Source: Candidatus Binatia bacterium
GTDB lineage: Bacteria > Desulfobacterota > Binatia > HRBIN30
Assembly: GCA_038245295.1 (NCBI GenBank)
Contig: JBBRSP010000017.1
Location: 32,001 to 96,000 of the forward strand
Length of the DNA: 64,000 bases
Reading direction: 5' to 3'
The notes under the pieces were generated by a model. It ran no database searches, was not told the origin of the DNA, and worked only from the letters and a program-made list of their open reading frames with translations. Below, in pieces: positions 774 through 30,649 of this stretch (position 1 is the first letter of the stretch; every line of letters begins with the position of its first letter). The translations under genes and the position numbers were made by a program.

Positions 774-830
774 CGTAGAACTAAATGCGTGGGTTTACGA
801 CCTACCGCGCCCGGCGCCTAGCGATAGAAG
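774..830 (+). promoter_or_regulatory. Regulon motif copy 1 plus -10-like TAGAAG, upstream of the radical SAM gene
   Basis: CGTAGAACTAAATG-CGTGGGTTTACGACC; TAGAAG at 825-830; the most degenerate of the nine copies. Confidence 0.55.
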
Positions 831-924
831 GTCGAACCCTTGCACTCGGGGTGAGTGCGGCCAGCTCGACCTTTCAAAGCCAGCGCGCCGCCGCTGTAGC
901 TGACGCGTGCGAGAGGAGTGCTCA

Positions 925-2538
925 ATGCTCGTGTTCCTGATCCATATCCGTGACCCACAATTCTACGCCCTGCCGGCGGCGACTCGCGCCGCCAATGGCA
1001 ATATCCGCGTCATGGGCTTTCCGCCGATCGGCATCATGTCGTTGTCGGCGGTGCTCAAGCGGGCTGGGCATGAGTGTGTCATGTTCGATCAGGCAAACCC
1101 CGATACTCCCGACGACACGATCATTGATGCAATCCGCCGGCAGCAGCCCGGTCTGGTCGGCCTGAGCTTCTTGAGCACTACAAGTTACCCCTACGCCAAG
1201 TTGCTGGCGCGGCGCATCCGCGCCGTTGATCCCGACGTGCCGTTGGCGTTCGGCGGCGTCTTCGCCACACTCAATGCCGAGCTCGTCAAGACGCAGTGTC
1301 CCGAAGTCAACTTCGTCTGCCGCGGTGACGGCGAGCAATTGATTCTCGACCTGGTGGACCGGATAGACGCACCGGAAACCGTCGCCGGGCTTACCTGGGC
1401 GAAAGACGGCAAGGTGATCCAGAACCCCAATCGGATGATGGACCGCCATCTCGATCAGTGGCCATTTCCCGATCGCGAAAGCCTGAAGCTCGACTTCATC
1501 GAGTCGATGCCTCTCGATGTGCCCGCGGTCCTGTCCATGGAGCGATTCACGACGATGCAAACATCGCGCGGTTGTCCATGGCCGTGTGTGTTTTGCGACA
1601 TACCGATCTTCAACGAGGGCAAATGGCGCTCGCGCAGTGCCCAACACGTGGTCGATGAGTTCAAAGAGCTACAGCGATTGGGCTACGGCGCCGTGTACTT
1701 CGTCGATGATCACTTCCTGCTGCAACCCAAACGCATCGAAGCCATCTGCAACGGGATCAATGAGGCTGGCGTAACGATTCAGTGGGGCTGTGAAGGCCGT
1801 GTCGATTCGACGGCGCAACATCTTTTTCCGGCGATGGTAAAAGCGCATTGCCGCACCATCATGTTCGGTGTCGAGAGCGGCAGTCAGACGGTGCTGGACC
1901 GACTGAAGAAAGAACAAACGTTGGCGGAGGTCGAGAACGCGGTCACCAACGCGAAACGCGCCGGCATCGAGATCGTCCACGGCTTCTTCGTCGTCGGTAC
2001 ACCGGGCGAAACGGTCGAGGACATGCGTGCGACGTTTGATTTTGCCGCCAAGCTGCGACTCGACACCTTTGCGTTCAACCGTTTGTGTGTCTACCGCGGC
2101 ACGCCGCTGTGGCACGAGTACCTGACGCGCGGTTTGGTGAACGACGCGGACGATTGGTTCAAGTACTTCAAGTGTTCGGAAATCGATCCCACGTGTTTGT
2201 CCGGTGAGGTCATCAATAACGAACGCAACGCCGGCTTCCGACGACTGTTCCGTTACAAGGTGACACACTATCCGATGCAGACGCTGCGCTTGCTGCGGCG
2301 CTTCATGCGCCACATGCCGGTGCGCGATGTGTTGTACCTGCTCTTCAAGCCCTTCTTCGGCAGCAAACAGGGGCCGACCAAGAACGAAGTCTTGTCGCGC
2401 GCTGTCGAGCATCCGCTCGTCAAGGATGCCGCGGCAAACCTTACTCAGGTATCCGATGACCTGCTCCAGCGGGTCGTCGAAGAGTCGCGCGCCGAGCGAC
2501 GGCGCATCCTCCAGGAGTCTCCCTCCAGCCAGCCGTGA
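925..2538 (+). CDS. Cobalamin-binding radical SAM protein (class B methyltransferase-like)
   Basis: N-terminal B12-binding-like region (PPIGIMSLSAVLK...FGGVFAT...RGDGE), SRGCPWPCVFC cluster motif, FVDD, GVESGS; GAGGAG before ATG 925. Confidence 0.9.
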   Translation: MLVFLIHIRDPQFYALPAATRAANGNIRVMGFPPIGIMSLSAVLKRAGHECVMFDQANPDTPDDTIIDAIRRQQPGLVGLSFLSTTSYPYAKLLARRIRAVDPDVPLAFGGVFATLNAELVKTQCPEVNFVCRGDGEQLILDLVDRIDAPETVAGLTWAKDGKVIQNPNRMMDRHLDQWPFPDRESLKLDFIESMPLDVPAVLSMERFTTMQTSRGCPWPCVFCDIPIFNEGKWRSRSAQHVVDEFKELQRLGYGAVYFVDDHFLLQPKRIEAICNGINEAGVTIQWGCEGRVDSTAQHLFPAMVKAHCRTIMFGVESGSQTVLDRLKKEQTLAEVENAVTNAKRAGIEIVHGFFVVGTPGETVEDMRATFDFAAKLRLDTFAFNRLCVYRGTPLWHEYLTRGLVNDADDWFKYFKCSEIDPTCLSGEVINNERNAGFRRLFRYKVTHYPMQTLRLLRRFMRHMPVRDVLYLLFKPFFGSKQGPTKNEVLSRAVEHPLVKDAAANLTQVSDDLLQRVVEESRAERRRILQESPSSQP

Positions 2539-2670
2539 CCTGCCCAGATTCGCGACCGGCGCAAGCCCCAGAATTTGCTCGAGGCGCCATTTTGAGGGCT
2601 GACCTCCCTGCCGTTTGCGGTACATTCTCCAACGAGGAGACCGGGCGCATGATAGGCGCCGCTACGCCCG

Positions 2671-2728
2671 CGTAGGACCACGCGCGTAGTTGCCCGAGCT
2701 TACGACCCTGTCGCACCTCCTGTACCAG
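2671..2728 (+). promoter_or_regulatory. Regulon motif copy 2 plus -10-like TACCAG
   Basis: CGTAGGACCACGCG-CGTAGTTGCCCGAGC-TTACGA-N17-TACCAG. Confidence 0.72.
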
Positions 2729-2773
2729 AGGAGTAGCAGGTGCCGCGCCTCGACGCGGCCTGGAGGTTCGTTG

Positions 2774-5074
2774 ATGATTCCGAAACGTATTGTATCTGTC
2801 TTTGCGGGACTTCTGATGGTCTCTGCCACCCTCGGTGGCGCTTTGCCGGCATTGGCTCAGGGCCGATCTGGCGGCGGGGGGACGCCGCCGCGTCTAGCCT
2901 TCCTGGATGGCGACGTGTCGTTCTGGCGCACCGGTGCCGAGGAGTGGACGCAAGCCCAATTGAACACACCGATTGCGGCCGGCGATTCCCTCTTCGCCGG
3001 TGACAACGCCAATTTTGAGCTCGAGGTCGGTCCACGTGCCTTTGTGCGCGCCGGCGCCGCCACGGAAATCGACCTCACGGCGCTCGAGCCGGACTACTTG
3101 CAACTGCGTATCCCCGGCGGACACGCGGCCCTCGATCTGAAAAGTCTGCCGCGCGGTACGACGATCGAAGTCGATTCACCGAATGCCGCGTTTACGATCA
3201 ACCGCCCGGGGTATTACCGTGTCGACATCGACGAGACCCGAACGGTATTCAGCGCTCGCCGCGGCGGTGCAGCGATGGTTGCCCCGGCGGCGTCGGACTC
3301 GCTGTCGGTCGGCGACAATCAACAGGTCATTCTCGATGGTACGGACAATGTACAGGTCAATCTCACTGCGGCGCCCGCTCCGGATGAATGGGATCGCTGG
3401 AATTACGACCGCAGCGGGCAGCTGGTTGAAGTACCCCGCAGCGCTGCCTACGTGCCGCCCACGGTTGCCGGTGTCGACGACCTCGACCGCTACGGCGAGT
3501 GGCGCGCGCAGCCGCGCTACGGCCACGTCTGGGTACCGCGCGATGTGCAGCCCGACTGGGCTCCCTACAGCACCGGCCGCTGGGTCTATGACCCGTATTA
3601 CGAGTGGACGTGGGTCGACGACTCACCTTGGGGCTGGGCTCCGTATCACTACGGGCGTTGGGTGCATCTCGATGGGTATTGGGGCTGGGCGCCCGGGCCG
3701 ATTGTGGCGCGACCGGTATATGCGCCGGCCCTCGTTGCGTTCTTCGGTTCGCCGGGCCTCGGCGTCTCGGTGAGCATCGGCCTACCGTTCGTCAGCTGGT
3801 GTGCTCTCGGCTTCGGTGAACCGATCATTCCGTGGTGGGGGAGAAGAGGGTTTGTTGGGCAGCCCTACTGGGGTGGTTGGGGTGGCCCGCGCGTCGTCAA
3901 TAATGTCGTCATCAACAACACGCGCATCGTCAATGTTACGAACATCAACCACTATGAGAATGTGAATGTCCGTAATGCCGTCTCGGGCGTCGATCGCAAT
4001 CAATTCGGTCGCGGCCGCGGCGATCACATCCGCTTGGATCCGCAGCGTGTGCAGAACCTGCGCCCGGTGCGCGGCGATCTCGGTGTCCGGCCGGTTGCGT
4101 CGAGCCTTGTCGCCCGGGAGGAACGTGGTCGACGCCCTCCGGAACAACTGCAGGCACGCCGGGTGGTAACCACCAGACCGGCGCCGGATCCGATGAATCG
4201 ATTGCGAACCAAGGGTTTTGCCCCGACGGCGAGTCCGTCGCGACCTGAACCACGCATGGCGCATACCCTGCGCCAGCCGCGCGATCCGGGCGCGCAGCCG
4301 CAAGGCGGTAATCCACCGCAGCGCCGCGGTGCCGTTCCTCAGCAGAGGCAGGCGCCTGGGGTGTCAGGACAACCACAGCCTGCCGGCGGCGAGGCCGCCC
4401 ACCCGGGTCGTCCGGAAAGGCCAGGCCGGCCGATACGTCAGGAACACACGCAACCCGGTGCTCGCGGTGAAGTGGCGCCGCCGCCGGTGCCCGGTGCCCG
4501 TCCGCGACCAAATGCGATGCACCCCGGTGTAGCGCCGCAGCCGGGTTCCCGCGAACAAGCGCAACCCCCCGTACACGATCAGGTACGCCCGCGGGAGAAT
4601 CGAGTCGCGCCGCCACCGCCGAACGAGCCACGCGCCGTCCCACGGCCGCCGGCCCACCAGGCTGATCGACAACACGAACCGGCAGCGCCACACGCCCAGC
4701 CGGCCGCACAACCGCCACCGCCGCACTCGCAGCCGGCGGCCCGGGAACCACAAGCGCCGATGCATCAGCCTGCCGCACCGCCCCCCGCGGCGCCCAGACC
4801 TCCGGCACAGCAGCCGTCGCGCCCACACGAGGAGCGGGTCGCACCACCGCCGCAAATGCATCAGCAAGCTCCGGTGCGGCAGGAGCGCGCCGCGCCGCCG
4901 CCGCAGGCGCCGCCACGGCAGGAGCGCGCCATGCCGCCGGTTCAACAGCAACAGCAACCGCGGCCGGCCCCGCCGCCGGTTCAACAGCAACAGCAACGGC
5001 AACCGCGGCCGGCTCCGCAGAATGCGCCACCGCATGCTGCACCGGCTGCCGGCGGCGACCGGCCGCCCGGGTAA
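2774..5074 (+). CDS. Secreted FecR/DUF6600-type protein with W/Y-rich repeats and a long Pro/Gln-rich tail
   Basis: Signal peptide after GGAGG; FecR-like beta region; DLDRYGEW, WAPYSTGRW, PWGWAPYHYGRW motifs; low-complexity C-terminus. Confidence 0.8.
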   Translation: MIPKRIVSVFAGLLMVSATLGGALPALAQGRSGGGGTPPRLAFLDGDVSFWRTGAEEWTQAQLNTPIAAGDSLFAGDNANFELEVGPRAFVRAGAATEIDLTALEPDYLQLRIPGGHAALDLKSLPRGTTIEVDSPNAAFTINRPGYYRVDIDETRTVFSARRGGAAMVAPAASDSLSVGDNQQVILDGTDNVQVNLTAAPAPDEWDRWNYDRSGQLVEVPRSAAYVPPTVAGVDDLDRYGEWRAQPRYGHVWVPRDVQPDWAPYSTGRWVYDPYYEWTWVDDSPWGWAPYHYGRWVHLDGYWGWAPGPIVARPVYAPALVAFFGSPGLGVSVSIGLPFVSWCALGFGEPIIPWWGRRGFVGQPYWGGWGGPRVVNNVVINNTRIVNVTNINHYENVNVRNAVSGVDRNQFGRGRGDHIRLDPQRVQNLRPVRGDLGVRPVASSLVAREERGRRPPEQLQARRVVTTRPAPDPMNRLRTKGFAPTASPSRPEPRMAHTLRQPRDPGAQPQGGNPPQRRGAVPQQRQAPGVSGQPQPAGGEAAHPGRPERPGRPIRQEHTQPGARGEVAPPPVPGARPRPNAMHPGVAPQPGSREQAQPPVHDQVRPRENRVAPPPPNEPRAVPRPPAHQADRQHEPAAPHAQPAAQPPPPHSQPAAREPQAPMHQPAAPPPAAPRPPAQQPSRPHEERVAPPPQMHQQAPVRQERAAPPPQAPPRQERAMPPVQQQQQPRPAPPPVQQQQQRQPRPAPQNAPPHAAPAAGGDRPPG

Positions 5075-6228: not shown

Positions 6229-6300
6229 CGTAGAAGTACGCGCGTAGGAGCGCGTACGTAGTAGTCCGATCTTACGTCGCCGCCGGATGTTCCGTAAGAA
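6229..6300 (+). promoter_or_regulatory. Regulon motif copy 3 (three 14-bp units) plus -10-like TAAGAA
   Basis: CGTAG at 6229, 6243 and 6257, then TAGTCCGATC-TTACGT-N17-TAAGAA. Confidence 0.75.
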
Positions 6301-6306: not shown

Positions 6307-6684
6307 ATGGCGATGGAAGCAAACCCCGAACTAGCGCGTGTCTCTACTGGAATGAGGCAACTCGATATCCTCTTGCCGTCGCAACATTTCGGTCCGCACC
6401 GCAAGCAGTCACCTGAGCAGCGCCTGATGATCGCTGTGCTGCACGACGCGATCGACTGCATCGAGAAGTTTCGATTTTCTGATGATCCGCAGGGCCGCCG
6501 CATCTTTCACGAAACCAAGCAGTGGCTGGTGTCGAGCGAAACCGACTGGCCATACTCGTTTGAGTGTATCTGCGCCGTGCTCGATCTTGATTCGGATGCG
6601 GTGCGCCAACGCTTGCGGGTAACCCCCGTGCGACACCCGGTGCTGCGGGCTACGCAGGAAGCCCAGCGTATGACAGGAACCTAG
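6307..6684 (+). CDS. Conserved hypothetical protein (EQRLMIAVLHDAI...W...SFECICAVL type)
   Basis: Compact helical ORF directly behind a motif promoter; resembles a recurrent uncharacterised family (from memory). Confidence 0.7.
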   Translation: MAMEANPELARVSTGMRQLDILLPSQHFGPHRKQSPEQRLMIAVLHDAIDCIEKFRFSDDPQGRRIFHETKQWLVSSETDWPYSFECICAVLDLDSDAVRQRLRVTPVRHPVLRATQEAQRMTGT

Positions 6685-6843: not shown

Positions 6844-7164
6844 ATGAGTACTTGGAATCGCTTTGCCACTCTGTCGGTCGCAGTCCTGTTGTCGTCGCTT
6901 GTCGGATGCGCCTCGACGGCCAAACACGAAGGTACCGGTGAGTACATCGACGACACGGTCCTGACGACCAAAGTGAAGGCGGAAGTGTTGGCCGAAGACT
7001 CTCTGAAGTCGAGCGAGATCAACGTCGAGAGCTTCAAGGGTGTTGTTCAATTGAGCGGCTTTGTCTCTTCACAGGCGGACATCAACAAGGCCGTAGAGAT
7101 TGCGCGCCACGTGAAGGGTGTGAAGTCAGTCAAGAATGACATGCGTGTAAAGGGCCAGCAGTAA
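6844..7164 (+). CDS. BON-domain (OsmY-like) lipoprotein
   Basis: Lipobox LVGC; GEYIDDTVLTTKVKA...INVESFKGVVQLSGFV...VKGVKSVKNDM; GGAGG RBS. Confidence 0.92.
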   Translation: MSTWNRFATLSVAVLLSSLVGCASTAKHEGTGEYIDDTVLTTKVKAEVLAEDSLKSSEINVESFKGVVQLSGFVSSQADINKAVEIARHVKGVKSVKNDMRVKGQQ

Positions 7165-7238: not shown

Positions 7239-7859
7239 GTGGCTGCGCCTACCGTCTTTGTCGTAGACGACAACATAGGCGTGCGCAGGTCGGTGCGGGC
7301 GTTGTTGGAGTCCGCGGGACTGAACGTCGAGACATACGGCGAGGCGGACGAGTTTCGCGCCTCATTCGACCCGCAACGATCCGGTTGCCTGTTGCTTGAT
7401 GTCCGCTTACGAGACAGTTGCGGTCTCGACCTGCAAGACGAGCTGCGGGCGCGCAAGGCGTCGCTTCCGGTCATCGTAATGACCGGTCACGGCAACGTGG
7501 CGATTTCGGTGCGAGCCCTCAAGGCTGGCGCCTTCGACTTTCTGCAGAAGCCGGTGCCGCCGAATATGCTGCTTGAGCGCATCCGTGCGGCAATCGAATA
7601 CGATCGCAACACGCGAACCTCCAGCAGTCAACGTGCCCCTGTCATGAGTGATCTGGCGGGGCTGACACCCCGCGAGGGCGAAGTCATGGAACTACTGGTC
7701 GCGGGTAAGCCATCCAAGGAAATCGCCGAGACCCTGCATGTCAGCGTGCGCACGATCGAAGGGCATCGACGTATGGTGTTGGCCAAGATGAACGTGTCCT
7801 CGGCGGCACAACTCGTCCGCACGGTGCTGAGTGTTCGGGACGCGGCACTGCGGCTCTAG
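7239..7859 (+). CDS. FixJ/NarL-family response regulator, paralog of 107..730
   Basis: Same receiver motifs and near-identical HTH (SKEIA...SVRTIEGHRR). Confidence 0.93.
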   Translation: MAAPTVFVVDDNIGVRRSVRALLESAGLNVETYGEADEFRASFDPQRSGCLLLDVRLRDSCGLDLQDELRARKASLPVIVMTGHGNVAISVRALKAGAFDFLQKPVPPNMLLERIRAAIEYDRNTRTSSSQRAPVMSDLAGLTPREGEVMELLVAGKPSKEIAETLHVSVRTIEGHRRMVLAKMNVSSAAQLVRTVLSVRDAALRL

Positions 7860-8975: not shown

Positions 8976-8991
8976 CGGCATGAGGGTTGCA
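8976..8991 (+). promoter_or_regulatory. Putative sigma-54 (-24/-12) promoter of the csbD cluster
   Basis: CGGCATG-AGGG-TTGCA fits GG-N10-GC (consensus TGGCACG-N4-TTGCW), about 30 nt before ATG 9021. Confidence 0.6.
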
Positions 8992-9020: not shown

Positions 9021-9188
9021 ATGACAAGTGGAAAAGCGGATGAACTGAAGGGGCGTGTCAAGGAAGCCGCGGGCGCTCTGCTGGGCGACAAAGAGCTCAA
9101 GCAGGAGGGCAAGGCCGACCAGACTGTGGGCAAAGTGAAGCAATCGGTTGAGAAGATGATTGATAAGGTAAAGGACGCGCTCGATTGA
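9021..9188 (+). CDS. csbD: CsbD-family stress protein (55 aa, not in ORF track)
   Basis: MTSGKADELKGRVKEAAGALLGDKELKQEGKADQTVGKVKQ...; GGAGGAG RBS. Confidence 0.9.
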   Translation: MTSGKADELKGRVKEAAGALLGDKELKQEGKADQTVGKVKQSVEKMIDKVKDALD

Positions 9189-9222
9189 AATGAGCTGACG
9201 CTCACCTGCCGAGGAGAATCTC

Positions 9223-9393
9223 ATGTTGCACTACGCTGTAGTCTTTTTCGTCATCGCGCTGATCGCCTCGGTGCTTGGCTTCCGCGGCATAGCCGGGATG
9301 TCGGCGCAGATTGGTTGGATCTTCGCGGTCATCGCCATCGTCTTCTTGGTTGTCGCCTTACTCGGCAGTCGCGGACCGATTGGAATTCCCTAA
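9223..9393 (+). CDS. DUF1328-family small membrane protein (56 aa, not in ORF track)
   Basis: MLHYAVVFFVIALIASVLGFRGIAGMSAQIGWIFAVIAIVFLVVALL...; GAGGAG RBS. Confidence 0.88.
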   Translation: MLHYAVVFFVIALIASVLGFRGIAGMSAQIGWIFAVIAIVFLVVALLGSRGPIGIP

Positions 9394-9450
9394 GCAGAGT
9401 GTGCCTTCGATGGCTTTGCACGTAGCTTCGACGATCACGCATTCAGCACG

Positions 9451-9529
9451 CCGCAGGCTGAAGCCTGCGCCTACCATGCTGGATACACCGGCGGATTGGA
9501 AACCGGTAGGCGCAGGCTTCAGCCTGCGG
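9451..9529. repeat. GTAG-type REP doublet (REPIN)
   Basis: CCGCAGGCTGAAGCCTGCGCCTACC...GGTAGGCGCAGGCTTCAGCCTGCGG; six such doublets in the window. Confidence 0.85.
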
Positions 9530-9654
9530 CGTGGTCGCGAAGGTAATCTGCAAAGCCGCCTTCGAGCACACGGCACGGCATTGTGCCGTTAAGCGCGGTA
9601 GTGAGGCATCATAAAATGAACCCAGCCTTCTGGCAGAACTCGGAGACCACGCTC

Positions 9655-15690: not shown

Positions 15691-15747
15691 GCTTTATCAC
15701 GAACGCCCAAAAGCACGACCCAGGAGAACTGCGCGCGTAGTTCTACG
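15691..15747 (-). promoter_or_regulatory. Regulon motif copy 4 facing the ice-binding gene
   Basis: Minus strand CGTAGAACTACGCG-CGCAGTTCTCCTGGG; TAAAGC at the -10 position; first unit has perfect 5-bp inverted arms. Confidence 0.65.
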
Positions 15748-15784: not shown

Positions 15785-15842
15785 CGCAAAAACACGCGCG
15801 TAGTTGTCCGAGCTAACGGTGGCAGGATGCCGCGGGTAGAAA
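15785..15842 (+). promoter_or_regulatory. Regulon motif copy 5 plus -10-like TAGAAA
   Basis: CGCAAAAACACGCG-CGTAGTTGTCCGAGC-TAACGG-N17-TAGAAA. Confidence 0.68.
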
Positions 15843-19979: not shown

Positions 19980-20037
19980 CGTAGAACTACCTGCGTAATT
20001 CCCCGACCTTTAATCGGCGTTGCGGCGCTTGTATCAA
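19980..20037 (+). promoter_or_regulatory. Regulon motif copy 6 plus -10-like TATCAA
   Basis: CGTAGAACTACCTG-CGTAATTCCCCGACC-TTTAAT-N17-TATCAA. Confidence 0.68.
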
Positions 20038-21869: not shown

Positions 21870-22037
21870 TTAGTCGACGGCGTCCTTGATCTTGTCGATC
21901 ACCTTCTCGGCATGTTGCTTCACTTTGCCGATGGACTGATCGACACGTCCTTCGTGCTTCAGCTTAGCATCGCCGGTGAGGGCGCCGGCCGCTTCTTTTA
22001 CACGTCCCTTGAGCTCATCAATTTTTCCACTGGTCAT
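21870..22037 (-). CDS. csbD: CsbD-family protein (55 aa, not in ORF track)
   Basis: MTSGKIDELKGRVKEAAGALTGDAKLKHEGRVDQSIGKVKQHAEKVIDKIKDAVD; AAGGAG RBS. Confidence 0.9.
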   Translation of the reverse strand: MTSGKIDELKGRVKEAAGALTGDAKLKHEGRVDQSIGKVKQHAEKVIDKIKDAVD

Positions 22038-22082
22038 GTGCGTTACTCCTTTGTTTGCGTTGTGACGTTACGTTCAAAAACC

Positions 22083-22139
22083 ACTCTAAGGTGGGCCATC
22101 CATGCGGCAAGATCGGATTACCACGCGCGTAGTTTCACG
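22083..22139 (-). promoter_or_regulatory. Regulon motif copy 7 plus sigma70-like TTGCCG-N16-TAGAGT
   Basis: Minus strand CGTGAAACTACGCG-CGTGGTAATCCGATC-TTGCCG-N16-TAGAGT. Confidence 0.7.
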
Positions 22140-22162
22140 CGGCGTGGATATCCGCAGTTGCA

Positions 22163-23881
22163 CTAGTGCCGCACGCGCCCTTTCAGGATGTTGTGTTCGA
22201 TGGTCGGGATGAGGTCCTGGAGGATTACGTCCTCGTAACGTCCCGACGTCGGGTTCGTCAGATCAGGCACCTGCGATTCTGACACCCGGTGGTTCACGTA
22301 GAACGAGCCCTTGCGTCCGCCGGCGCCAGGAAGGACAACGACGAACATGTTCTGCATCTGCTTCGACACCATCAGTGGGTCGAGCATGTCGCCGAGGCGC
22401 TCGTAGTCGTTTGGCGACTGGCCATAACCGGGCAGGATATACAGTACAGGAAAGCTCCTTGTCGTATGGAAGTATGCCGGTGGGCGATAGATCAGCACCG
22501 CCTCGTTCGGGGTCGCACCGCTCCCCAGACGCAGTGAGGGGGCGGCGATCATCGACTTCATGATATCACCGCGCGGATCGAGGTCGGTGATATCGATGTC
22601 GCCGGGCCCGTGAAATCCGTCGGCGAAGCTTGAGTCGACGTACGCGAACAGCGTCAAGAGACGCTGCCAGACGACCAACTGGCCGCAGACGTTGCCGTGT
22701 AACAACTGGTCGGTTGTATCATCGGCTTCCGGCACGCCGACGTGACCGCCGGTGTACTGAACCATCAGGAATTGCTGTGACAGGGTGGGGAACTGCGTGC
22801 AGTTGCCGGGAAAGTCACCGAGGCTGTCGACGGTAAGTCCTTTGGAACGCAGCAGCGCCACGAAGTTCTCATAGTGACGTCCGAAGCCGAATTGGTCCTC
22901 GCTGCCGACATCCATGTAGATGCGCTGCGTCGCGATGTCGGTTGCCGAGCGCGCCGCGGTGCGCGTCAGCGGATCCTCGGCCAGCCAGTTGGCGCGATCG
23001 GGATCGTAGTCGAATTGGCCGTTGCCCTCGCCGAAGTCGCTGGTTCCGGCAACGCCGTCGAGGCCGACATCCTGAAACGTCTCGCCCAATTCCGGCTCGT
23101 AGACGAGATTGTCGTTGGTGTCGGTAAACGGCTCGGAGAAGTTGACGACGATACCTTCACCGACATCGTAGACACCGTCGCTGTCCAAGTCAGCCAGCTT
23201 GCGCCCACCGACATCCACCGCGGTGGCGCCGCTGACGATCATCGGGAGTGACCCGACGGCAAGCAGGGCAACGTCGGCCGACTGGGTCGGTGTCTCGCTG
23301 ATTTGGCGAGCCCCGTCCTGGTTGGCATCGCCGCCATCGAGAAACTGCATCGGGTTGGCCGACAGGGTGAAGGTCCCAAAGGCGTCGTCCCGCAGCAGAT
23401 GTGCCGGCTGCGAGTCCATCGCCAGATATTGACGCGTCGGATCGGTATGGTGCAGGACCGGATTGCCGAAGGCGATGACCAGATCCTTATTCATTGCCAG
23501 TCGCAGATCACGCCCGGGATAGGGGGCCTGATGGTCGAAGGTGAAGTCGTCGCCGACGTTGAGCGGGCGCGTTGTTTGCGCCTTCACTTCGAGGTTGTCG
23601 TGGACAACGTCGCGCAGCAGTTGCCGCATGTCGACAGGGCCGCCGAGCGAGGCAATCGTGCTGAAGGTGTCGGCGTGTTTGGTGCCGAGGTTCATGGCGC
23701 CAAAGGCGCCCATCGAAACGCCACTGATGGCGCGGTACTGGCGCTCGATTGTCAGGGACCCGCCGGGAGTCGGGCTCGGCCCGACATCAGGCCCGCTGCC
23801 CCCATGCCCCCCACACGCGGCGAGGGCGGTAAGGGTAAGAGGGAGAACGCGGCTCAGGAAACTCTTGGTTAGGGATAACAT
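22163..23881 (-). CDS. Lipoprotein esterase (PF00756-like alpha/beta hydrolase), apparently circularly permuted
   Basis: Lipobox LAAC; RAISGVSMG near the N-terminus; YMDVGSED; GGH; then IYRPPAY...FPVLYILPG...SFY...DLIPTIE at the C-terminus. Confidence 0.75.
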   Translation of the reverse strand: MLSLTKSFLSRVLPLTLTALAACGGHGGSGPDVGPSPTPGGSLTIERQYRAISGVSMGAFGAMNLGTKHADTFSTIASLGGPVDMRQLLRDVVHDNLEVKAQTTRPLNVGDDFTFDHQAPYPGRDLRLAMNKDLVIAFGNPVLHHTDPTRQYLAMDSQPAHLLRDDAFGTFTLSANPMQFLDGGDANQDGARQISETPTQSADVALLAVGSLPMIVSGATAVDVGGRKLADLDSDGVYDVGEGIVVNFSEPFTDTNDNLVYEPELGETFQDVGLDGVAGTSDFGEGNGQFDYDPDRANWLAEDPLTRTAARSATDIATQRIYMDVGSEDQFGFGRHYENFVALLRSKGLTVDSLGDFPGNCTQFPTLSQQFLMVQYTGGHVGVPEADDTTDQLLHGNVCGQLVVWQRLLTLFAYVDSSFADGFHGPGDIDITDLDPRGDIMKSMIAAPSLRLGSGATPNEAVLIYRPPAYFHTTRSFPVLYILPGYGQSPNDYERLGDMLDPLMVSKQMQNMFVVVLPGAGGRKGSFYVNHRVSESQVPDLTNPTSGRYEDVILQDLIPTIEHNILKGRVRH

Positions 23882-23890
23882 AAGAAACCT

Positions 23891-24298
23891 TTACGGGCCG
23901 ACTTCGGTGAAGCCGGTAACTTCCAGCGTACTCATGAAACGACCGTCGGTGCGGTCGGGGAGCTGCGGGAAGGTGAAGTGGAAGGCAGTGCTGGCGTGCG
24001 GCGCCAGATCGTTGGCCAGCTCGAACGGTACGGCGCGACCGGGGTTGTCGGCGCTCGGGTGTAACTCATCGGTCCATAGAAACTGTTGCCGCAGCTCCAA
24101 GTGAATACCGTGCAACGTCGAGCCCGACTTGTTGATGAGTGTGCCCGATACCGAGGTGCCGGCAATCGCGACATCGCTGAGCGTCACCGTGCGTTCGGCG
24201 TCACCCGGTTGCAGCACGGTCGCCGCTAGGGTCGCGCCGGGGCGCGAGACGAGAGGTAGCCCGAGGAGGGCAACAAATAGAAAAATGCGTGGGGTCAT
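23891..24298 (-). CDS. Hypothetical secreted beta-rich protein
   Basis: Signal peptide MTPRIFLFVALLGL; short gaps to both neighbours on the same strand. Confidence 0.65.
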   Translation of the reverse strand: MTPRIFLFVALLGLPLVSRPGATLAATVLQPGDAERTVTLSDVAIAGTSVSGTLINKSGSTLHGIHLELRQQFLWTDELHPSADNPGRAVPFELANDLAPHASTAFHFTFPQLPDRTDGRFMSTLEVTGFTEVGP

Positions 24299-24314
24299 GA
24301 TCGAACTCCAGTGT

Positions 24315-24929
24315 TTACAGTCCAAGATCGAGCGTGCGCACCTTCTTGAAGCGTTGCGCTACGTCTTGCCAGTTGACGATCTTCCAGAACGCCGTGACCC
24401 AGTCGGCTTTGACGTTCTTGTATTGCAGGTAATAGGCGTGCTCCCACATATCGAGAACCAGCAACGGAACGGTCCCATTGCCGATGTTGCCCTGGTGATC
24501 GTAGACCTGCTCGACGACCAGCCGCTGGCCGACCGGCTCCCAGGCCATGGCGCCCCATCCGGAACCCTGAACGTTGAGCGCCGCCTGGGTCAGCTGACTC
24601 TGCAGCCCGTCGACGGAACCAAATGATTCCTTGATGGCGGCACCCAGGTCGTCCGGAGGCGCTCCACCGCCCTTGGGGCTCATATTGAGCCAGAACAGGG
24701 AGTGCAGGACGTGGCCGGAGACGTGAAAGGCGAGATTCTTCTGCAGTTGGTTGATGGCGTCGAAGTTGTTCTGCTCACGCGCCGCGGCAAGTTTGTCGAG
24801 CGTCGCGTTGGCGCCTGTGACATATGCGGCGTGGTGTTTGGTGTGGTGCAATTCCAGGAGGGCCGCGGAGTAGTGCGGCTCCAAGGCGGCGTAGTCGTAA
24901 GGTAGATCGGGAAGGGTGTATTTCTTCAT
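24315..24929 (-). CDS. sod: Fe/Mn superoxide dismutase
   Basis: YTLPDLPYDYAALEP, HHTKHH, GHVLHSLFW, QGSGW, DMWEHAYYLQYKN; GGAGG RBS. Confidence 0.95.
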   Translation of the reverse strand: MKKYTLPDLPYDYAALEPHYSAALLELHHTKHHAAYVTGANATLDKLAAAREQNNFDAINQLQKNLAFHVSGHVLHSLFWLNMSPKGGGAPPDDLGAAIKESFGSVDGLQSQLTQAALNVQGSGWGAMAWEPVGQRLVVEQVYDHQGNIGNGTVPLLVLDMWEHAYYLQYKNVKADWVTAFWKIVNWQDVAQRFKKVRTLDLGL

Positions 24930-25065
24930 AGGGACCTCCATCGTCCATAGGATGCGCCCTGGAAGAGGTGCCGCCAATATACGAAATGCAAGAAGTGAAT
25001 CTGCGAGCGCTCACGTAAGTGTGGAGACACGGCGCAAGAGTGTCCGGCACTGGATACCGGCTTCC

Positions 25066-25225
25066 GGGACCGTCGATAAACTGAAATGGAGCAACGTCAT
25101 CCCGGCGAAAGCCGGGATCTCCCCCTGCTGGAAGCCTCGAAGGCTGGCGAGATACCGGCTTTCGCCGGTATGACGGAGGTGTTTGCGCAGTTGCAAACGA
25201 TGAATCAGAGAAAATCGATAGTCTC
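25066..25225 (+). mobile_element. ~160-bp MITE-like element with internal CGTC-type REP pair
   Basis: GGGACCGTCGAT...ATCGATAGTCTC imperfect terminal inverted repeats; homologous copies at 50654 and 59920. Confidence 0.8.
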
Positions 25226-25258
25226 TTCTTCAGCCTGCGCTCGCTTGTTGGTCGAGCG

Positions 25259-25408
25259 TTACAATCGACCGGTAAGCAACAGCACAACCAGCACGAGCAA
25301 GATGATCCCGCCGACGCCGGAGGGAGCATAGCCGTAGTTGTGATAACCCCAGTTCGGCAGACCGCCGAAGACCAATAGCAACAAGACGACGAGTAGAATG
25401 AGAGGCAT
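25259..25408 (-). CDS. DUF3309-family small membrane protein (49 aa, not in ORF track)
   Basis: MPLILLVVLLLLVFGGLPNWGYHNYGYAPSGVGGIILLVLVVLLLTGRL; paralog of 10178..10327. Confidence 0.88.
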   Translation of the reverse strand: MPLILLVVLLLLVFGGLPNWGYHNYGYAPSGVGGIILLVLVVLLLTGRL

Positions 25409-25437
25409 GGGAGTTCTCCTTTGGATGGCTCCGAGAG

Positions 25438-25725
25438 TTAGGTCCGCGGTGCTGCAGCGGTGCTTGGCGCCGTCGCATGAGTCGTCTGGGCCCGGAGGTG
25501 CTCACCTAGTTCGCTGGCTTTCTCGGCCAGGTCGTGGCGAATCTGTTGGCCTGCCTTCGGGGCGAACAGCAACGCCAAGCCGGCTCCCAGCATGATGCCG
25601 GTGCCAAAGACTCCGAACACGCCAAGCGTCGAAGCGACCCGGCTGGTCGACTTGGTCTGTAAACCGATGGCGTTTGCCAACTCTTCCTTTGATGGAAGGG
25701 CCTCGAGAAGATCTTCGAGTTTCAT
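25438..25725 (-). CDS. YtxH-domain protein
   Basis: FGTGIMLGAGLALLFAPKAGQQIR. Confidence 0.82.
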   Translation of the reverse strand: MKLEDLLEALPSKEELANAIGLQTKSTSRVASTLGVFGVFGTGIMLGAGLALLFAPKAGQQIRHDLAEKASELGEHLRAQTTHATAPSTAAAPRT

Positions 25726-25746
25726 GATGGCTGCTCCTTTGGGTCG

Positions 25747-26118
25747 CTAGACCCGTTCAACCGCCACGCTACGCGGCGGGGTGTTGCTGGAAGGAAAAAG
25801 TCGGGCGCTGATTTCGCGTGTTGCCAGCACGGTGGCAAATCGGGTCGCCGCACCAAGCAGGACAACGGTCAGTCGCGAGTTGAGCCCGCCGCCGAGAACG
25901 TAGCCAATGCCGAGGGCGGCACCCAATGTTACGTAGGGCCGCTGTTTAAGCTGGTGCGTCAGGGTCTGTTGCGCCGCGCTGGAAGCGTCGCGCACTGCTT
26001 CGGCGAGGGCCGTCGCGTCATGTTGGATCTCGCGCGCGTGTTGGCGCAGCGAGCGCTCGTCGACAAATTCGGCGTTTGCGGCACTCCAGGCGCCGTTAAC
26101 GTGCGTGGCGTGGGTCAT
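25747..26118 (-). CDS. ElaB/YqjD/DUF883-like membrane-anchored protein
   Basis: Helical region then QRPYVTLGAALGIGYVLG. Confidence 0.65.
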   Translation of the reverse strand: MTHATHVNGAWSAANAEFVDERSLRQHAREIQHDATALAEAVRDASSAAQQTLTHQLKQRPYVTLGAALGIGYVLGGGLNSRLTVVLLGAATRFATVLATREISARLFPSSNTPPRSVAVERV

Positions 26119-26351
26119 CGCCGAGCCCGCCTAAGGCTGGAGACGATGCGTCCCATCACAAACCCGAAAGCGACGGCGCCCAGGATTGCGACGACGGGCC
26201 GTTGGCGAACGCCGCGGCGCGTCCGTTCCTGTAACTCCGTGAGTGTCGTGCCGACGGTGTCGATATCGGCTCCGACGGCATCAACGAGGGGCGCGATAGA
26301 TTCGTCGGCAAGGATGGTGTCGGTGGTCATCGTGGTCTCCTGTGTCTCCAT
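26115..26351 (-). CDS. ElaB/YqjD/DUF883-like small protein
   Basis: VRQRPVVAILGAVAFGFVMGR plus basic tail; ATGA overlap with the next gene. Confidence 0.68.
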   Translation of the reverse strand: METQETTMTTDTILADESIAPLVDAVGADIDTVGTTLTELQERTRRGVRQRPVVAILGAVAFGFVMGRIVSSLRRARR

Positions 26352-26372
26352 GCAATGAAACAGTCACGCTTC

Positions 26373-26430
26373 TTTCTATCGGCATGTCAGGTAAGCAGTA
26401 AGCTCGGAGTACTACGCGCGTGCTTCTACG
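26373..26430 (-). promoter_or_regulatory. Regulon motif copy 8 plus -10-like TAGAAA
   Basis: Minus strand CGTAGAAGCACGCG-CGTAGTACTCCGAGC-TTACTG-N17-TAGAAA. Confidence 0.78.
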
Positions 26431-26545
26431 CGGCGACGGCGTTGCGGCGCTCATGGAGTGGTCTGTGCCGGTGTGTTGCCAGCGGGATGGGCCACGAAAT
26501 TACGTGGCTAGTGCAGCGCCGCGGTGGTCAGTATAAGTGCCCGCC

Positions 26546-27532
26546 ATGAACGCCGCGGAGAAGCCGTTGAGTCTGTCCCCGGCGCCGCTGATCGATGTCG
26601 AGGAGTTGGAAGTGCGCTACGGCACACGCGCCGCTCTGCGTGGTCTTAGTTTTACAGTGAAGGCCGGCGAGGTCGTCGGACTGCTCGGACCAAACGGCGC
26701 CGGAAAGACAACGACGTTTTCGGTCCTCGCGACGCTACGTAAGCCAGATGCGGGGCGCGTCACCGTCGCCGGCCTGTCGGTGGCCGACGCCCCCAAACAG
26801 GTGCGCCGAATGCTCGGCGTCGTTCCACAATCTCTCGCTCTGTATCCGACGTTCAGCGCCCGCGAGAATGTGGTTCTCTTCGCGCGGTTGGCGGGGTTAC
26901 GTGGCCGGGCGGTACACGTCGCCGCGACGGCGGCCCTGCAACTCGTCGGTCTCGAGGATCGCGCCGACGATCGCGTCGGGTCGTTTTCCGGCGGTATGCA
27001 ACACCGGCTTAATTTGGCCTGTGGCATCCTGCACGCGCCGCGTGTCGTACTGCTCGACGAACCTACCGTCGGCGTCGATCCGCAGTCGCGCGAGCGCATC
27101 GGCGAGGCGGTGCGCGATCAAGCCCGGCGCGGCGCCGCGGTTCTTTACAGCACTCATGATCTCGACGAGGCCGAGCGCGTTTGCGACCGCGTAGTGCTGA
27201 TCGACGAAGGACACGTGGTGAGCGACGGCACGCCGGAGGAGTTGATTCGCCGCTCGGGTGGCGTGCTGCGCCTCGAGGTCGTCACCCGCGCGCCGCTGCC
27301 CGTCGGTTGGTTTGAGGGGGTGGACGGAGTTGTTCCGATCCACGCCGCAGCGGTGGCGCCGCTATTGAGCCGGGGCCCGACTGTCCATGTCGGACTCACT
27401 GACCTGAGCAGCGCGTCGCGCGTTCTCGAGCGCGCCACGGCGTGTGGTGGGGGAGTGCTCGAGTTTCATGTCCACCAACCCAGCCTGCAGGACGTGTTCA
27501 TGGCGCTGACCGGGCGGGCGCTGCGCGATTGA
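26546..27532 (+). CDS. ABC-2 exporter ATP-binding protein
   Basis: GPNGAGKT, FSGGM, LLDEPTVGVD, STH, PSLQDVF. Confidence 0.93.
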   Translation: MNAAEKPLSLSPAPLIDVEELEVRYGTRAALRGLSFTVKAGEVVGLLGPNGAGKTTTFSVLATLRKPDAGRVTVAGLSVADAPKQVRRMLGVVPQSLALYPTFSARENVVLFARLAGLRGRAVHVAATAALQLVGLEDRADDRVGSFSGGMQHRLNLACGILHAPRVVLLDEPTVGVDPQSRERIGEAVRDQARRGAAVLYSTHDLDEAERVCDRVVLIDEGHVVSDGTPEELIRRSGGVLRLEVVTRAPLPVGWFEGVDGVVPIHAAAVAPLLSRGPTVHVGLTDLSSASRVLERATACGGGVLEFHVHQPSLQDVFMALTGRALRD

Positions 27533-27539
27533 GGATTGT

Positions 27540-29219
27540 ATGTCATCGCTGTTGACCCTCATCGGCAAGGACTTGCGCTTGCTCGGGCGTGACCGAGCCG
27601 CGCTGGTGTTCATTCTGCTGGCGCCGCTGATCGTAATCTGTGTGGCGGGCTTGTCTCTGGCCAACCTCTATGGCGCCGACCCGACCGGGCAAACGGCCTA
27701 CGACTTGCCCCTGTTCGATGAGGACGGCAGTCGCCTATCGCAAGAGATTCGTGAACGCCTGGCGCAGGAGCCGGCGGTGCGTCTGCGCGACGTCGGCAGC
27801 CGCGCCGAAGCGCAAGAACTGGTGCGCGACAAACAGGCCGGCTCAGCGCTCATCATTCCGCGCGGCACGGCGGCAGCGTTGACCGCCGGCGCAGGCGCCA
27901 AGATCATCCTGTTCAACGATCCGGTGAAGTATCTGGAACGCATCAATCTGCGGACTCGGATTCTCGAACTGCGTGATGCGATCAGTACGGAGCAGGGCGC
28001 CGCTGTGCGACAGGGGGCCGCGGCGGAACGAGCCAAGGCCGAAGAGAAGATTGCCGCCTTCAAGGCGGTCGTGGTGAACCAGCGCGCCAAGCTCGAGGCG
28101 GCATGGAGTGAGGCGAGACGGATTCGTGCCGCGGTCTTGGAGGCAGCCCGACGTGATGCGGTGCAGGCGCGCGGCGAGGCGACTCGCGTGATCAAGAACG
28201 AGTGGCAGCAGCACTCGGCGCGTGTGCAGAAAGATGTTCAGAGCCAGGTCGAGCAACTGCGCCAGGAGTTTCGGGCGTATGTCGAAGCCTTGGCGACGGC
28301 GCGGCAGGGCTTTGAAGCATGGCTGGAAGATCTCAAGACGCGCGCCGGCAGCCATGCCAGCGACATCCCGCCGCCGCCGTCGTTTCCGGAGTTGCCTGTG
28401 TCGCTCAAGCAGATCGTTGACGGCAGTCGGGCTCCTGTGGAACTGCGCCTGCCGGAGGTAGAGCTTGCGTTGCCGACCCCCAGAATGCCTGATCTGCCGG
28501 CGCTGCCGGACCTGCCTGAAATTGAGCTTCCGGAGATCGTTTTGCCGCCATTGCCGCCGGCGCCGTCGAGTCTCGAGATCGAAGTGGTCAGTCTCGCCGG
28601 CGTCCCAACCTACATCAATACCTTCGATCAGAACGTGCCCGGGTTCGCCGTGACCTTCCTGATGCTCGGTATGTTGCTGGGCATCTCGCTCGGACTCCTG
28701 GATGAACGTGAGTGGGGCACCATGCAGCGCGTGCGCGCGTTGCCGGTAGGGCCGTCGCAGTTCCTGTTGGCCAAACTATTGACGCGCTTCCTGGTGGGTG
28801 TGGGGCAGATGATCGTGCTGCTGACGATCGGTTGGCTCGCCTTCGGTGTGTCGCTCGGACCACAACCTGTGGCGCTGCTGTTGCCGATCGTCGGGATCGC
28901 ATATGCCGGAACGGCCTTCGGCTTGATCGTCGCAGCCGTGGCAACGAGTCGCGAGGCGGTCTTCTCGGTCGGATCGGTGGTGATGGTGACAATGTCCGCC
29001 GTCGGCGGTTGCTGGTGGCCGATCGACCTGGAACCGCGTTGGATGCGCAGTGTCGCTCTGGCCTTTCCAACGACCTGGGCGATGGATGCCTTCAACGATC
29101 TCATGATCCGGCGGCGCACCATCGATGCGGCATATCTGCCGACGGCGGTCATGCTCGCCTACGGCAGCCTCTACCTGCTGATTGGTCTGATGATCTTTCG
29201 CCGCCGCGCCGAGGGATGA
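27540..29219 (+). CDS. ABC-2 permease with long coiled-coil and Pro-rich insertion
   Basis: KDLRLL.RD start, DEREWGT, GGCWWP, PTTWAM; helical insertion followed by LPxLP repeats. Confidence 0.85.
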   Translation: MSSLLTLIGKDLRLLGRDRAALVFILLAPLIVICVAGLSLANLYGADPTGQTAYDLPLFDEDGSRLSQEIRERLAQEPAVRLRDVGSRAEAQELVRDKQAGSALIIPRGTAAALTAGAGAKIILFNDPVKYLERINLRTRILELRDAISTEQGAAVRQGAAAERAKAEEKIAAFKAVVVNQRAKLEAAWSEARRIRAAVLEAARRDAVQARGEATRVIKNEWQQHSARVQKDVQSQVEQLRQEFRAYVEALATARQGFEAWLEDLKTRAGSHASDIPPPPSFPELPVSLKQIVDGSRAPVELRLPEVELALPTPRMPDLPALPDLPEIELPEIVLPPLPPAPSSLEIEVVSLAGVPTYINTFDQNVPGFAVTFLMLGMLLGISLGLLDEREWGTMQRVRALPVGPSQFLLAKLLTRFLVGVGQMIVLLTIGWLAFGVSLGPQPVALLLPIVGIAYAGTAFGLIVAAVATSREAVFSVGSVVMVTMSAVGGCWWPIDLEPRWMRSVALAFPTTWAMDAFNDLMIRRRTIDAAYLPTAVMLAYGSLYLLIGLMIFRRRAEG

Positions 29220-29448
29220 GTGGATCGATTGTGCGAGTCGCGGGTAGCCGCAGGCTTTAGAGGTTGGCGCAAAACTCGCTGAGCCGGCTTCGACAGGCTC
29301 ATGGTTCGACGAGCTCACCATGGGAGGGTGTTTGGTTGATTCCGAAGGCAGTTTTCCGCTCGCCCTGATCTAGTCGAAGGGTGAGCGTAGGTTTTGAGAT
29401 ACCCTCTTTTGCCTGCGCTGTAGGTCAATTGTGCGAGAAAGGGGGGGC

Positions 29449-29488
29449 CCCGGCGGCGAGAGAAGGGCGATCGTTACCCGCCGCCGGG
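29449..29488 (-). terminator. GC-rich hairpin after ompA
   Basis: CCCGGCGGCG...CGCCGCCGGG inverted repeat about 20 nt past the stop; weak U-tract. Confidence 0.35.
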
Positions 29489-29509
29489 TTGTGTGTAGAG
29501 GTGAGGCGG

Positions 29510-30517
29510 CTACTCTACTCGAAGCTCTACACGACGGTTCTGGGCGCGGCCGTCATCGGTATCGTTCGAGGCAACCGGCTTTGATTCGCCGAAACCTTCG
29601 GTCTTGATCCGATCAGCTGGCAGGCCGCGCTTTACGAGGTAATCACGAACCGCGCTAGCGCGGCGCTCGGAGAGTTTCTCATTGTACGAATCGGAGCCTT
29701 TGCTGTCGGTGTGGCCTTCGACGATTACCAGGACACCGCCTTCGGCTTTCAACGTCGCTGCCGCTTCGTCGAGAACGGGGGCAGCGTCTTTACGGATATT
29801 CGACTTGTCGAAATCAAAATGCACGCTGCGCAGCACCAGCTTCTTCTTGACGGGCGGCGCCGGGGCTGGGGCCGGAGCTTGTGCGACGACCGGAGCCGGA
29901 GCTGGACGCGGTGCTTCGGCCGGGCCGTTGAAGGCGTACTTCACACCGATACCAACCGTGGCCCACTGGGCGTCGGCCGGACCCTGGTCGTCTTGCGCCT
30001 GGTTGGACAAGGTTGTCGGGCGTGGCGACATGTAGGTTCGATTCCAGCGCCCGAAGACACCCAGGGCGACCTGAGGTGTGATGTTGAAGTCGATACCACC
30101 GCCAACGGAGAAGCCTGGCGCCGTGTGGTTCAAGCGTCCGCTGAGCCCGGTGAAGGCACCACCCTGACCGGTTGCATAAATGTCGACCATCTCACCAAGC
30201 GGCACGGAAAGGCGCGGACCAATGGTCCCGCCAAGCATGGTGGTGGTTTGGTTCTCGTGGCTGAAGCCGCGGTGATCGTTGTCCGGCAGCTGCCCCGTAA
30301 AGTGCAGTTGGCCTTGCAGGCCGAGGTAGTCGTTGAACATGTAACCCACATAAGGGTTGGCGGTCGCTCCCTCATGGACGTGGGCGCGGTAGTTCTTATT
30401 GGTCGGCAGCGACGCACCGAGGTCGATACCAACGAAAGCACCATCCGCGTGAACGGTGGTGGCGGCCCAGAGCAGCAGCGGCGGAGTTACCAGCAGGAAG
30501 CGTTTACGCAGGTTCAT
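29510..30517 (-). CDS. OmpA-family outer-membrane protein
   Basis: Signal peptide, beta-barrel, PAPAP linker, VHFDFDKS, EGHTDS, LSERRA, NRRVEL. Confidence 0.93.
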   Translation of the reverse strand: MNLRKRFLLVTPPLLLWAATTVHADGAFVGIDLGASLPTNKNYRAHVHEGATANPYVGYMFNDYLGLQGQLHFTGQLPDNDHRGFSHENQTTTMLGGTIGPRLSVPLGEMVDIYATGQGGAFTGLSGRLNHTAPGFSVGGGIDFNITPQVALGVFGRWNRTYMSPRPTTLSNQAQDDQGPADAQWATVGIGVKYAFNGPAEAPRPAPAPVVAQAPAPAPAPPVKKKLVLRSVHFDFDKSNIRKDAAPVLDEAAATLKAEGGVLVIVEGHTDSKGSDSYNEKLSERRASAVRDYLVKRGLPADRIKTEGFGESKPVASNDTDDGRAQNRRVELRVE

Positions 30518-30592
30518 TGTCATATCCTCTTTTCCGTTCATGGTGGCCCGGGCACTGGCGATCGGTTGATCGGTGAGCTGACCACGAGTCCT

Positions 30593-30649
30593 GTTATAGG
30601 TTGTCGGCCCTGCTCCATAAGCTCGGAGTACTACGCGCGTGGTTCTACG
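30593..30649 (-). promoter_or_regulatory. Regulon motif copy 9 plus -10 TATAAC
   Basis: Minus strand CGTAGAACCACGCG-CGTAGTACTCCGAGC-TTATGG-N16-TATAAC; nearly identical to copy 8. Confidence 0.8.

Follow-up and report, generated by a model that had tools for sequence, protein, structure and literature searches.

A putative operator of tandem units, joined to a promoter of the sigma70 type, recurs nine times in the first 31 kb of a 64,000-nucleotide stretch of a Candidatus Binatia genome (assembly GCA_038245295.1, contig JBBRSP010000017.1, positions 32,001 to 96,000; hereafter the window). We propose that this operator is bound by a clade of FixJ-like response regulators, two of which, RR1 and RR2, are encoded in the window, that these regulators are fed by a CheB-CheR-PAS histidine kinase encoded next to RR1, and that some 25 stress and surface transcription units are thereby activated. 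On the sequence evidence gathered here, we regard this proposal as a whole as probable. Genomes, contigs and loci are designated below by our own G, C and L numbers where they must be told apart.

Reality and distribution of the repeated motif

A sequence-only reading of the window had placed nine sites at 774 (+), 2671 (+), 6229 (+), 15747 (-), 15785 (+), 19980 (+), 22139 (-), 26430 (-) and 30649 (-). All were found at these positions and on these strands when the window sequence was checked directly, and they stand far above the shuffled and Markov backgrounds. A degenerate pattern (29 letters, up to 3 mismatches) matches the window 9 times, where 100 shuffles lead one to expect 0.08 matches; the 9 represent eight of the nine sites, 6229 being matched twice and 774 missed. 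A scoring matrix built from the nine sites and refined once retrieved 25 sites from the 6.63-Mb genome, with scores of 22.3–52.5, the next best position scoring 10.8. Sixteen of these sites lie outside the window, spread over 11 other contigs. When a matrix was made from these 16 alone, eight of the nine window sites scored 25.9–51.2, and no further window position reached 8. The site at 774 is the weakest (17.2 with the non-window matrix, in reverse orientation, and 16.0 in a leave-one-out score). A score of 17 was never attained in 10 Mb of simulated Markov sequence. The earlier reading saw no copies beyond 31 kb, and in the window none was found past this point; the genome has more. The regulon is likewise not confined to the island, although nine of 25 sites within 31 kb is an extreme clustering (binomial 2e-15).

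None of the 25 sites lies mostly within a called gene, though genes cover 86% of the genome; two overlap a gene by 15%. At 16 of 16 non-window sites the following gene shares the strand of the site, as it does at 81 of 91 sites in relatives (nine opposite, one without a gene) and at 54 of 64 metagenome sites. The sites thus point at the adjacent gene, as had been claimed, instead of being randomly oriented or equally frequent inside genes. It is a real motif that occurs across the genome and is densely clustered in the window. The island itself shows no compositional sign of foreign insertion, the GC content of the contig being 0.61–0.65 against 0.627 for the genome. Patchy presence within genera still points to gain or loss.

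Anatomy of the element and promoter geometry

The consensus over 115 pooled sites is cRCGTAGAACYACGYRCGTAGTWNTCCGAKCTTACGG. The unit is a 14-bp palindrome, RCGTAG-WW-CYACGY, repeated head to tail, with a good distal copy and a degenerate proximal one that runs into a CTTACG -35 box. Tandem 14-bp units with a palindromic first member, originally described from the nine sites, hold in the pooled set. An extra upstream unit stands in register at 28 of 115 sites, whereas 2 of 575 positions out of register have one; the 6229 site consists of three units (6229, 6243 and 6257) with the -35 box at 6271. A -10 box, TA(C/G)AA, lies 17–18 bp beyond CTTACG, across a poorly conserved spacer of variable length. 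TA is found at motif positions 52–54 in 103 of 115 pooled sites and 20 of 25 sites of this genome, and at 52–53 in all nine window sites, each of which had been said to be followed by a TA hexamer. For a held-out test, an exact pattern lacking the -10 box was used to retrieve 74 metagenome loci. All 61 sites with sufficient flank have TA at 52–54, compared with 2–11 of 61 in five control windows.

The TTGAC promoters of this genome have TA after 17 bp in 110 of 715 cases and after 18 bp in 106 of 711, whereas other spacers give 14–34 of about 710–723. Because the spacing is shared, CTTACG-17/18-TA(C/G)AA can be read as a housekeeping-type promoter with a poor -35 box. The sixth T of the -10 box is not conserved, as in Alphaproteobacteria. 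This does not point to an alternative sigma factor, since the TTGAC promoters also lack it (24 of 110 with the 17-bp spacer, 17 of 106 with the 18-bp spacer). An ATG is located 5–7 nt past the -10 hexamer at 56 of 183 sites, against 0–9 per position elsewhere. Such a peak at the predicted transcription start (+1) is expected for leaderless messages beginning there; in the window, the predicted +1 coincides with a start codon at 6307 (ATG) and at 15849 (GTG). The spacing, the TA box and the ATG peak support the earlier view of an operator abutting the -35 box of sigma70-type promoters in the manner of an activator, and there is little doubt, from this geometry, that the motif would act as an activator site at such promoters. 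Its tandem arrangement, with the proximal site overlapping the -35 box, is that of DosR/DevR. It counts against this reading that TA is absent from positions 51–55 in four of the 25 sites of the genome. The -35 boxes are degenerate at the 774 and 15747 sites. Three starts of longest open reading frames (2690, 15752 and 19878) overlap the motif, and the real starts are likely downstream, at about 2774, 15596 and 20046. A look-up of RNA records for window positions 21700–31000 listed none.

The same observations bear on the idea that the motif is no promoter element. It might instead be a dispersed repeat, serve as a recombination site or belong to a small structured RNA. Its palindromic nature and the strongly different gene order among islands would suit this idea. 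A repeat would not account for the fixed distance to the TA of the -10 box across an unconserved spacer in all 61 held-out sites, nor for the ATG peak at the predicted +1. A structured RNA would have to be transcribed, but transcription is predicted to begin downstream of the motif. Moreover, no recombinase occurs among the recurrent neighbours, and Rfam gives no match in window positions 1–32000. We consider this explanation very improbable.

The operators at 15747 and 15785 face away from each other with 37 bp between them, and the divergent genes that they drive encode secreted Thr/Pro-rich proteins. Divergent operator pairs also occur in four loci of relatives (L013, L014, L090 and L091).

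Probable assignment to a clade of FixJ-like regulators

RR1 and RR2 are 64% identical and have the same recognition helix. Both match PF00072 and PF00196 above cut-off and are thus composed of a receiver and a GerE-type helix-turn-helix (HTH) domain. FixJ is their best NCBIfam match, yet at 202 (RR1) and 182 (RR2) bits they stay below the equivalog cut-off of 255. The nearest homologs of RR1, at 61–75% identity, come from Candidatus Binatia or uncultured delta proteobacteria. In a tree of 46 rows (three of them duplicates), RR1, RR2 and their orthologs are monophyletic with a support of 99; D55, T83 and K105 are conserved throughout this clade, whose recognition helix reads SKEIA..SVRTVEGHRR. 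Two other FixJ-like genes of the genome, on contigs C4 and C8 (44–49% identity), were rejected as regulators of the operator, being outside the clade and having no site beside them.

The motif and the regulator clade occur together. With the matrix of this genome, sites are found in 18 of 19 loci around orthologs (61–75% identity), against one of 60 around other FixJ-like genes, and in 17 of 20 further ortholog regions. Two samples were compared, one of 150 genomes of the class, with orthologs defined by at least 59% identity, and one of 40 close relatives, 16 genomes being in both. In the class sample, at least two pattern matches were present in 15 of 20 genomes with an ortholog and in three of 130 without; the reversed pattern gave at least two matches in three of 151 genomes. 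Among close relatives, 13 of 13 with an ortholog carry 2–41 matches, compared with matches in two of 27 without. The contrast is also seen within genera (20, 12 and 7 matches in G157, G165 and G168 against none in G166; 20 in G162 against none in G151). The regulator, at 67–77% identity, is included in eight of the 74 metagenome loci found by the motif alone, most of which are short. Specificity outside Binatia is judged from two controls, the 60 loci around other FixJ-like genes and the reversed pattern. Six of eight relatives with csbD and without the regulator have at most one match, which suggests that the motif goes with the regulator and not with csbD. Sites selected by FixJ in vitro by systematic evolution of ligands by exponential enrichment (SELEX) are known as class I, GTAGTTTCCC, and class II, GTACGTAG (PMC4999443). 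Scored on our matrix, the first agrees with unit 2 at a level reached by 36 of 20000 shuffles, and the second with the unit junction at a level reached by 146 of 20000.

Several points weigh against this assignment. The fit of the 16-bp fixK site is equalled by 1445 of 20000 shuffles and that of GTAAGTAG by 1615, which does not exceed chance. Five of the 20 ortholog genomes have 0–1 pattern matches (G089, G060, G052, G018 and G068), weak sites being found by the matrix in G052 and G018, and two genomes (G128 and G064) have near-perfect sites but no ortholog was found in them. Thiobacillus-type FixJ-like proteins also have SVRTVEGHR, but their loci are without the motif. Kin among the compared genomes are not independent, and Fisher values calculated for the co-occurrence are therefore too favourable. 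Finally, csbD is present in nine of nine family members with the regulator and in one of 15 without; regulator and targets move as a module, and since they are gained and lost together, the co-occurrence is partly co-inheritance.

The operator could then belong to another co-inherited transcription factor, possibly with an alternative sigma factor, the FixJ-like regulators being passengers or targets. Besides this module inheritance and the strong sites of G128 and G064, such a factor would explain why RR2 itself lies behind a site and why a small helical protein, that of the window gene at 6307, is the commonest first target and as tightly linked as the regulator. However, this protein has 12 paralogs, only one of them with a site, and the half-sites match those selected by FixJ. 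No other DNA-binding family recurs among the neighbours, except a small LuxR HTH protein in four loci (48 cluster representatives were scanned, and the commonest ones besides). As for sigma factors, the genome has 14 sigma70-family genes, none of which passed the RpoS, SigB or EcfG cut-offs among the best five matches listed. A group-2-like sigma factor could be a partner of the operator promoters; it is rejected as the sole determinant, as it occurs in 12 motif-free family members, and it was not found in G165, which has 12 motif matches. Another factor thus appears unlikely as the owner of the operator.

We conclude, from tree and co-occurrence, that the operator very probably belongs to the clade of RR1 and RR2. 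The earlier proposal that the two local FixJ paralogs run the regulon stands as far as the clade is concerned, but these proteins are not FixJ proper. Furthermore, RR2 seems to be a target in addition to its regulator role: it is downstream of the 6229 promoter here and of an operator in L003, L006 and L011.

Two side observations concern related proteins. An operator precedes a stand-alone LuxR-HTH protein (family f7) in L013, L014, L089 and L090. In L041, a Pseudomonadota record, motif-like sites at 5658 (-) and 10818 (+) flank a FixJ-like gene outside the clade (46% identity); possibly this pair is a related operator in another lineage.

A CheB-CheR-PAS kinase as probable sensor

The gene ending at window position 110 encodes a cytoplasmic protein of 1242 residues, with CheB (40–215), CheR (301–493), two PAS (745–849 and 866–976) and HATPase (1122–1232) domains. 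It shows no clear membrane helix (maximum hydropathy 1.38). Six E/Q-E (NEEL) heptads at 687–727 form a coiled coil and a candidate methylation region. The motifs GASAGG, QHL, GTDG and CATGEEAYS, which we take to have catalytic-type roles, are present. The kinase core is FixL-like, but the FixL model scores 161 bits against a cut-off of 850, over the kinase part only, so that by this model the protein does not rank as a FixL. A single chain joins CheB and CheR to a coiled coil and a kinase, the combination that defines MAC1. Proteins of the MAC kind are described as experimentally uncharacterised in a 2022 preprint on them (bioRxiv 10.1101/2022.05.07.491037).

A full-length CheB-CheR kinase ortholog adjoins the regulator in 20 of 36 distinct loci. 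The other 16 speak against a strict pairing: in 10 there is the PAS-kinase part only or a cut by the contig end, and in six there is no kinase. From domain content and gene adjacency, this CheB-CheR-PAS kinase is the probable sensor for RR1. Some copies of the regulator adjoin a PAS-kinase lacking CheB and CheR. In L002, L005, L015, L016 and L087, the CheB-CheR kinase aligns as two pieces, through a frameshift, an insertion or an assembly error.

Probable targets and functional output

First genes behind the sites of this genome include csbD twice, a YflT-domain protein, DUF302, the YtxH/DUF3309 operon, the unit of the 6307 gene, BON and RR2, and OmpA, as well as a TRL-like lipoprotein, an acyltransferase, a LolA-like protein, two kinases, a radical SAM enzyme and large secreted proteins. 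No Crp/Fnr or NifA family match was found among the first downstream genes, operon-internal genes having been scanned in part. Among 106 downstream proteins in relatives, first genes that recur belong to the 6307 family (15), kinases (6), DUF1328 (5), two csbD types (4 and 4), BON (4) and a holin-X-like membrane protein (4). DUF3309 and superoxide dismutase (SOD) are also seen, and encapsulin/ferritin, YtxH, YflT and secreted proteins recur. The 6307 product is a three-helix protein of a Binatia-expanded family, often leaderless, which Atlas places in unnamed Binatota clusters. It has no Pfam, NCBIfam or PHROG match, and its predicted fold (pLDDT confidence score 74, best Z 5.7) is uninformative.

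This output resembles a general-stress or stationary-phase programme. However, the name dormancy regulon given earlier is not supported by the gene list, and the following points weaken the case for a stress role. Classical general-stress markers are only about six of the 25 targets of the genome. Secreted or envelope proteins, including a giant DUF11 protein, make up over half of the targets. Three of six csbD copies have no site, and no weaker or half sites were found before the stress genes without a full one. The island cluster csbD/DUF1328/csbD/DUF3309 (9021–10327) also has no operator. It is preceded instead by a sigma54-like -24/-12 site (8976..8991, +), a weak prediction (one match, 0.17 expected, 17 of 100 shuffles giving one). 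Similar sigma54-like sites at about 362493 of contig C2 and 293548 of C3 of this genome (G000) were noticed, the operator-free clusters served being csbD/DUF1328/DUF3309, DUF1328/BON and holin-X-like/YtxH. These sites suggest that genes of this kind are also reached by another pathway.

One may therefore ask whether the regulators do bind the motif but govern a surface, biofilm or developmental programme, or act as repressors. The OmpA protein, the TRL-like and BON lipoproteins, the DUF11 giant, the LolA-like protein and the acyltransferase would be at home in a surface programme, whereas csbD, DUF1328, DUF3309, BON, YtxH, YflT, SOD and encapsulin/ferritin recur across relatives. Repression would be compatible with the last half-site overlapping the -35 box, where binding could block polymerase. 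Yet this box is poor compared with the TTGAC consensus of the genome, as in activator-dependent promoters, and the same geometry is used by DosR for activation, as described in a section of PMC3029386. Taken together, such a different programme or sign of regulation is improbable. A general-stress role of the activated regulon is, on gene content, slightly favoured.

Features of the window

The 3' end of the kinase gene (1..110, +; start outside the window at G000:C17:28382) overlaps the start of RR1 (107..730, +), by domain search and tree the likely operator binder. Next is the weak promoter at 774..830 (+; -10 TAGAAG at 825–830), predicted to drive a B12-binding radical SAM protein (925..2538, +; Pfam) that is also behind a site in L006. 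The promoter at 2671..2728 (+; -35 CTTACG at 2699–2704, -10 TACCAG at 2723–2728) precedes a secreted DUF6600 protein with a Pro/Gln-rich tail (2774..5074, +; start inferred). The three-unit promoter at 6229..6300 (+; -35 CTTACG at 6271–6276, -10 TAAGAA at 6295–6300, +1 at 6307, leaderless) would serve the small helical protein (6307..6684, +), a BON (OsmY-like) lipoprotein that is likely co-transcribed (6844..7164, +) and, likely as feedback, RR2 (7239..7859, +).

The divergent pair consists of 15691..15747 (-; degenerate -35, -10 TAAAGC), with an ice-binding-like gene as target (14199 to about 15596, -), and 15785..15842 (+; -10 TAGAAA, +1 at 15849), with a secreted Thr/Pro-rich open reading frame whose GTG start is at the predicted +1 (15849–17450, +). 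The promoter at 19980..20037 (+; -10 TATCAA) faces a PAS-HisKA-HATPase-REC hybrid kinase (about 20046–21629, +), and that at 22083..22139 (-; -10 TAGAGT) faces csbD (21870..22037, -; Pfam). The promoter at 26373..26430 (-; -35 CTTACT, -10 TAGAAA) precedes a four-gene operon (25259..26351, -) for proteins of 78 and 123 residues without Pfam match, YtxH and DUF3309. The name ElaB, earlier given to 26115–26351, found no backing in Pfam. The best-scoring copy, 30593..30649 (-; -10 TATAAC), precedes an OmpA-family outer-membrane protein (29510..30541, -; Pfam).

The island also contains, without an operator, a sensorless histidine kinase of 364 residues (12959–14053, -), whose helical N-terminal region is, by appearance only, presumably RsbRD_N-like and as such a candidate. 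At about 25050–25190, between the SOD and DUF3309 genes, there is a repetitive extragenic palindromic (REP)-like stretch of inverted repeats, CGTCATCCCGGCGAAAGCCGGGATC..., recurring as ...GATACCGGCTTTCGCCGGTATGACGG.

Proposed mechanism and significance

We propose that the soluble CheB-CheR-PAS kinase autophosphorylates in the region of His1019 and phosphorylates Asp55 of RR1, and that its own CheR and CheB domains may tune it by methylating the NEEL coiled coil, which would be a form of adaptation. Phosphorylated dimers would occupy the distal palindrome (centre about -58) and, cooperatively, the proximal one (about -44). The bound RR1 could then recruit RNA polymerase at the weak -35 box, as DosR does, and the stress-protection and cell-surface units would be switched on. 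RR2 and further kinases, themselves targets, may provide feedback.

MAC1 proteins are widespread and are proposed links between two-component and chemotaxis signalling. If our proposal is true, it gives the first defined output, operator and regulon for such a protein, and the cognate regulator with its sharp 33-bp operator would be a ready reporter for MAC1 sensing and self-methylation or adaptation. It would apparently also be the first regulon for uncultured Binatia, none having been found in the literature searched, and the motif predicts stress genes among the many hypothetical proteins of this group. As the sequence-only reading had supposed, the operator does not seem to be a described one: its motif words appear in open papers only as a crystallography oligonucleotide (12-mer). 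A term search of the accessible text of the Binatota genome paper gave no passage on regulators or promoters, and at the level of titles and listings of openly searchable papers, no description of such a regulon was found.

Comparison with known systems

Tandem sites over the -35 box are, as an architecture, already known from DosR and FixJ. Our verdict is that the Binatia system represents a putative new operator and regulon of this kind, distinct from FixLJ by cut-offs, sensor and regulon size. DosR/DevR of Mycobacterium tuberculosis uses two or more sites in close succession, and the proximal one, which is weaker, extends over the -35 box, according to the part of PMC3029386 on these promoters. 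Like it, the Binatia system has a response regulator with a LuxR-type HTH and a stress- or dormancy-type regulon that includes regulatory genes. It differs in site sequence and targets, and its regulator is FixJ/StyR-like whereas DosR is NarL-like. DosS and DosT, the sensors of DosR, have a haem-GAF architecture, in contrast to the CheB-CheR-PAS kinase of Binatia. With MAC1 the Binatia sensor shares CheB, CheR, coiled coil and kinase in one protein; the sections of the MAC1 preprint that were consulted (bioRxiv 10.1101/2022.05.07.491037) give no regulator, operator or regulon, while all three are proposed here.

FixL-FixJ of rhizobia (structure 5xso) has a regulator of the same family, and the Binatia sensor has a FixL-like kinase core. 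FixJ covers -69 to -31 at fixK, as stated in a passage of PMC4999443, which is comparable to the Binatia array at about -64 to -31. The recognition helix is different, NKLIA..SPRTIEVYRA in FixJ, and FixJ has 1–4 direct targets (fixK, nifA) against about 25 for the Binatia regulator. The sensor, far under the FixL cut-off, also differs by carrying CheB and CheR. The general stress regulons of RpoS, SigB and EcfG depend on an alternative sigma factor and have csbD, BON/OsmY, DUF1328, YtxH, YflT and SOD as markers. Such marker genes are shared with the Binatia targets, but the Binatia response regulator appears to act on housekeeping-type promoters. Many Binatia might run general stress through a MAC1 kinase, adapting itself by its own CheR and CheB, and a FixJ-type activator on the tandem CGTAG operator, with no stress sigma factor, a generalisation that we offer tentatively. 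General-stress genes would in that case be under the control of an activator in place of a stress sigma factor.

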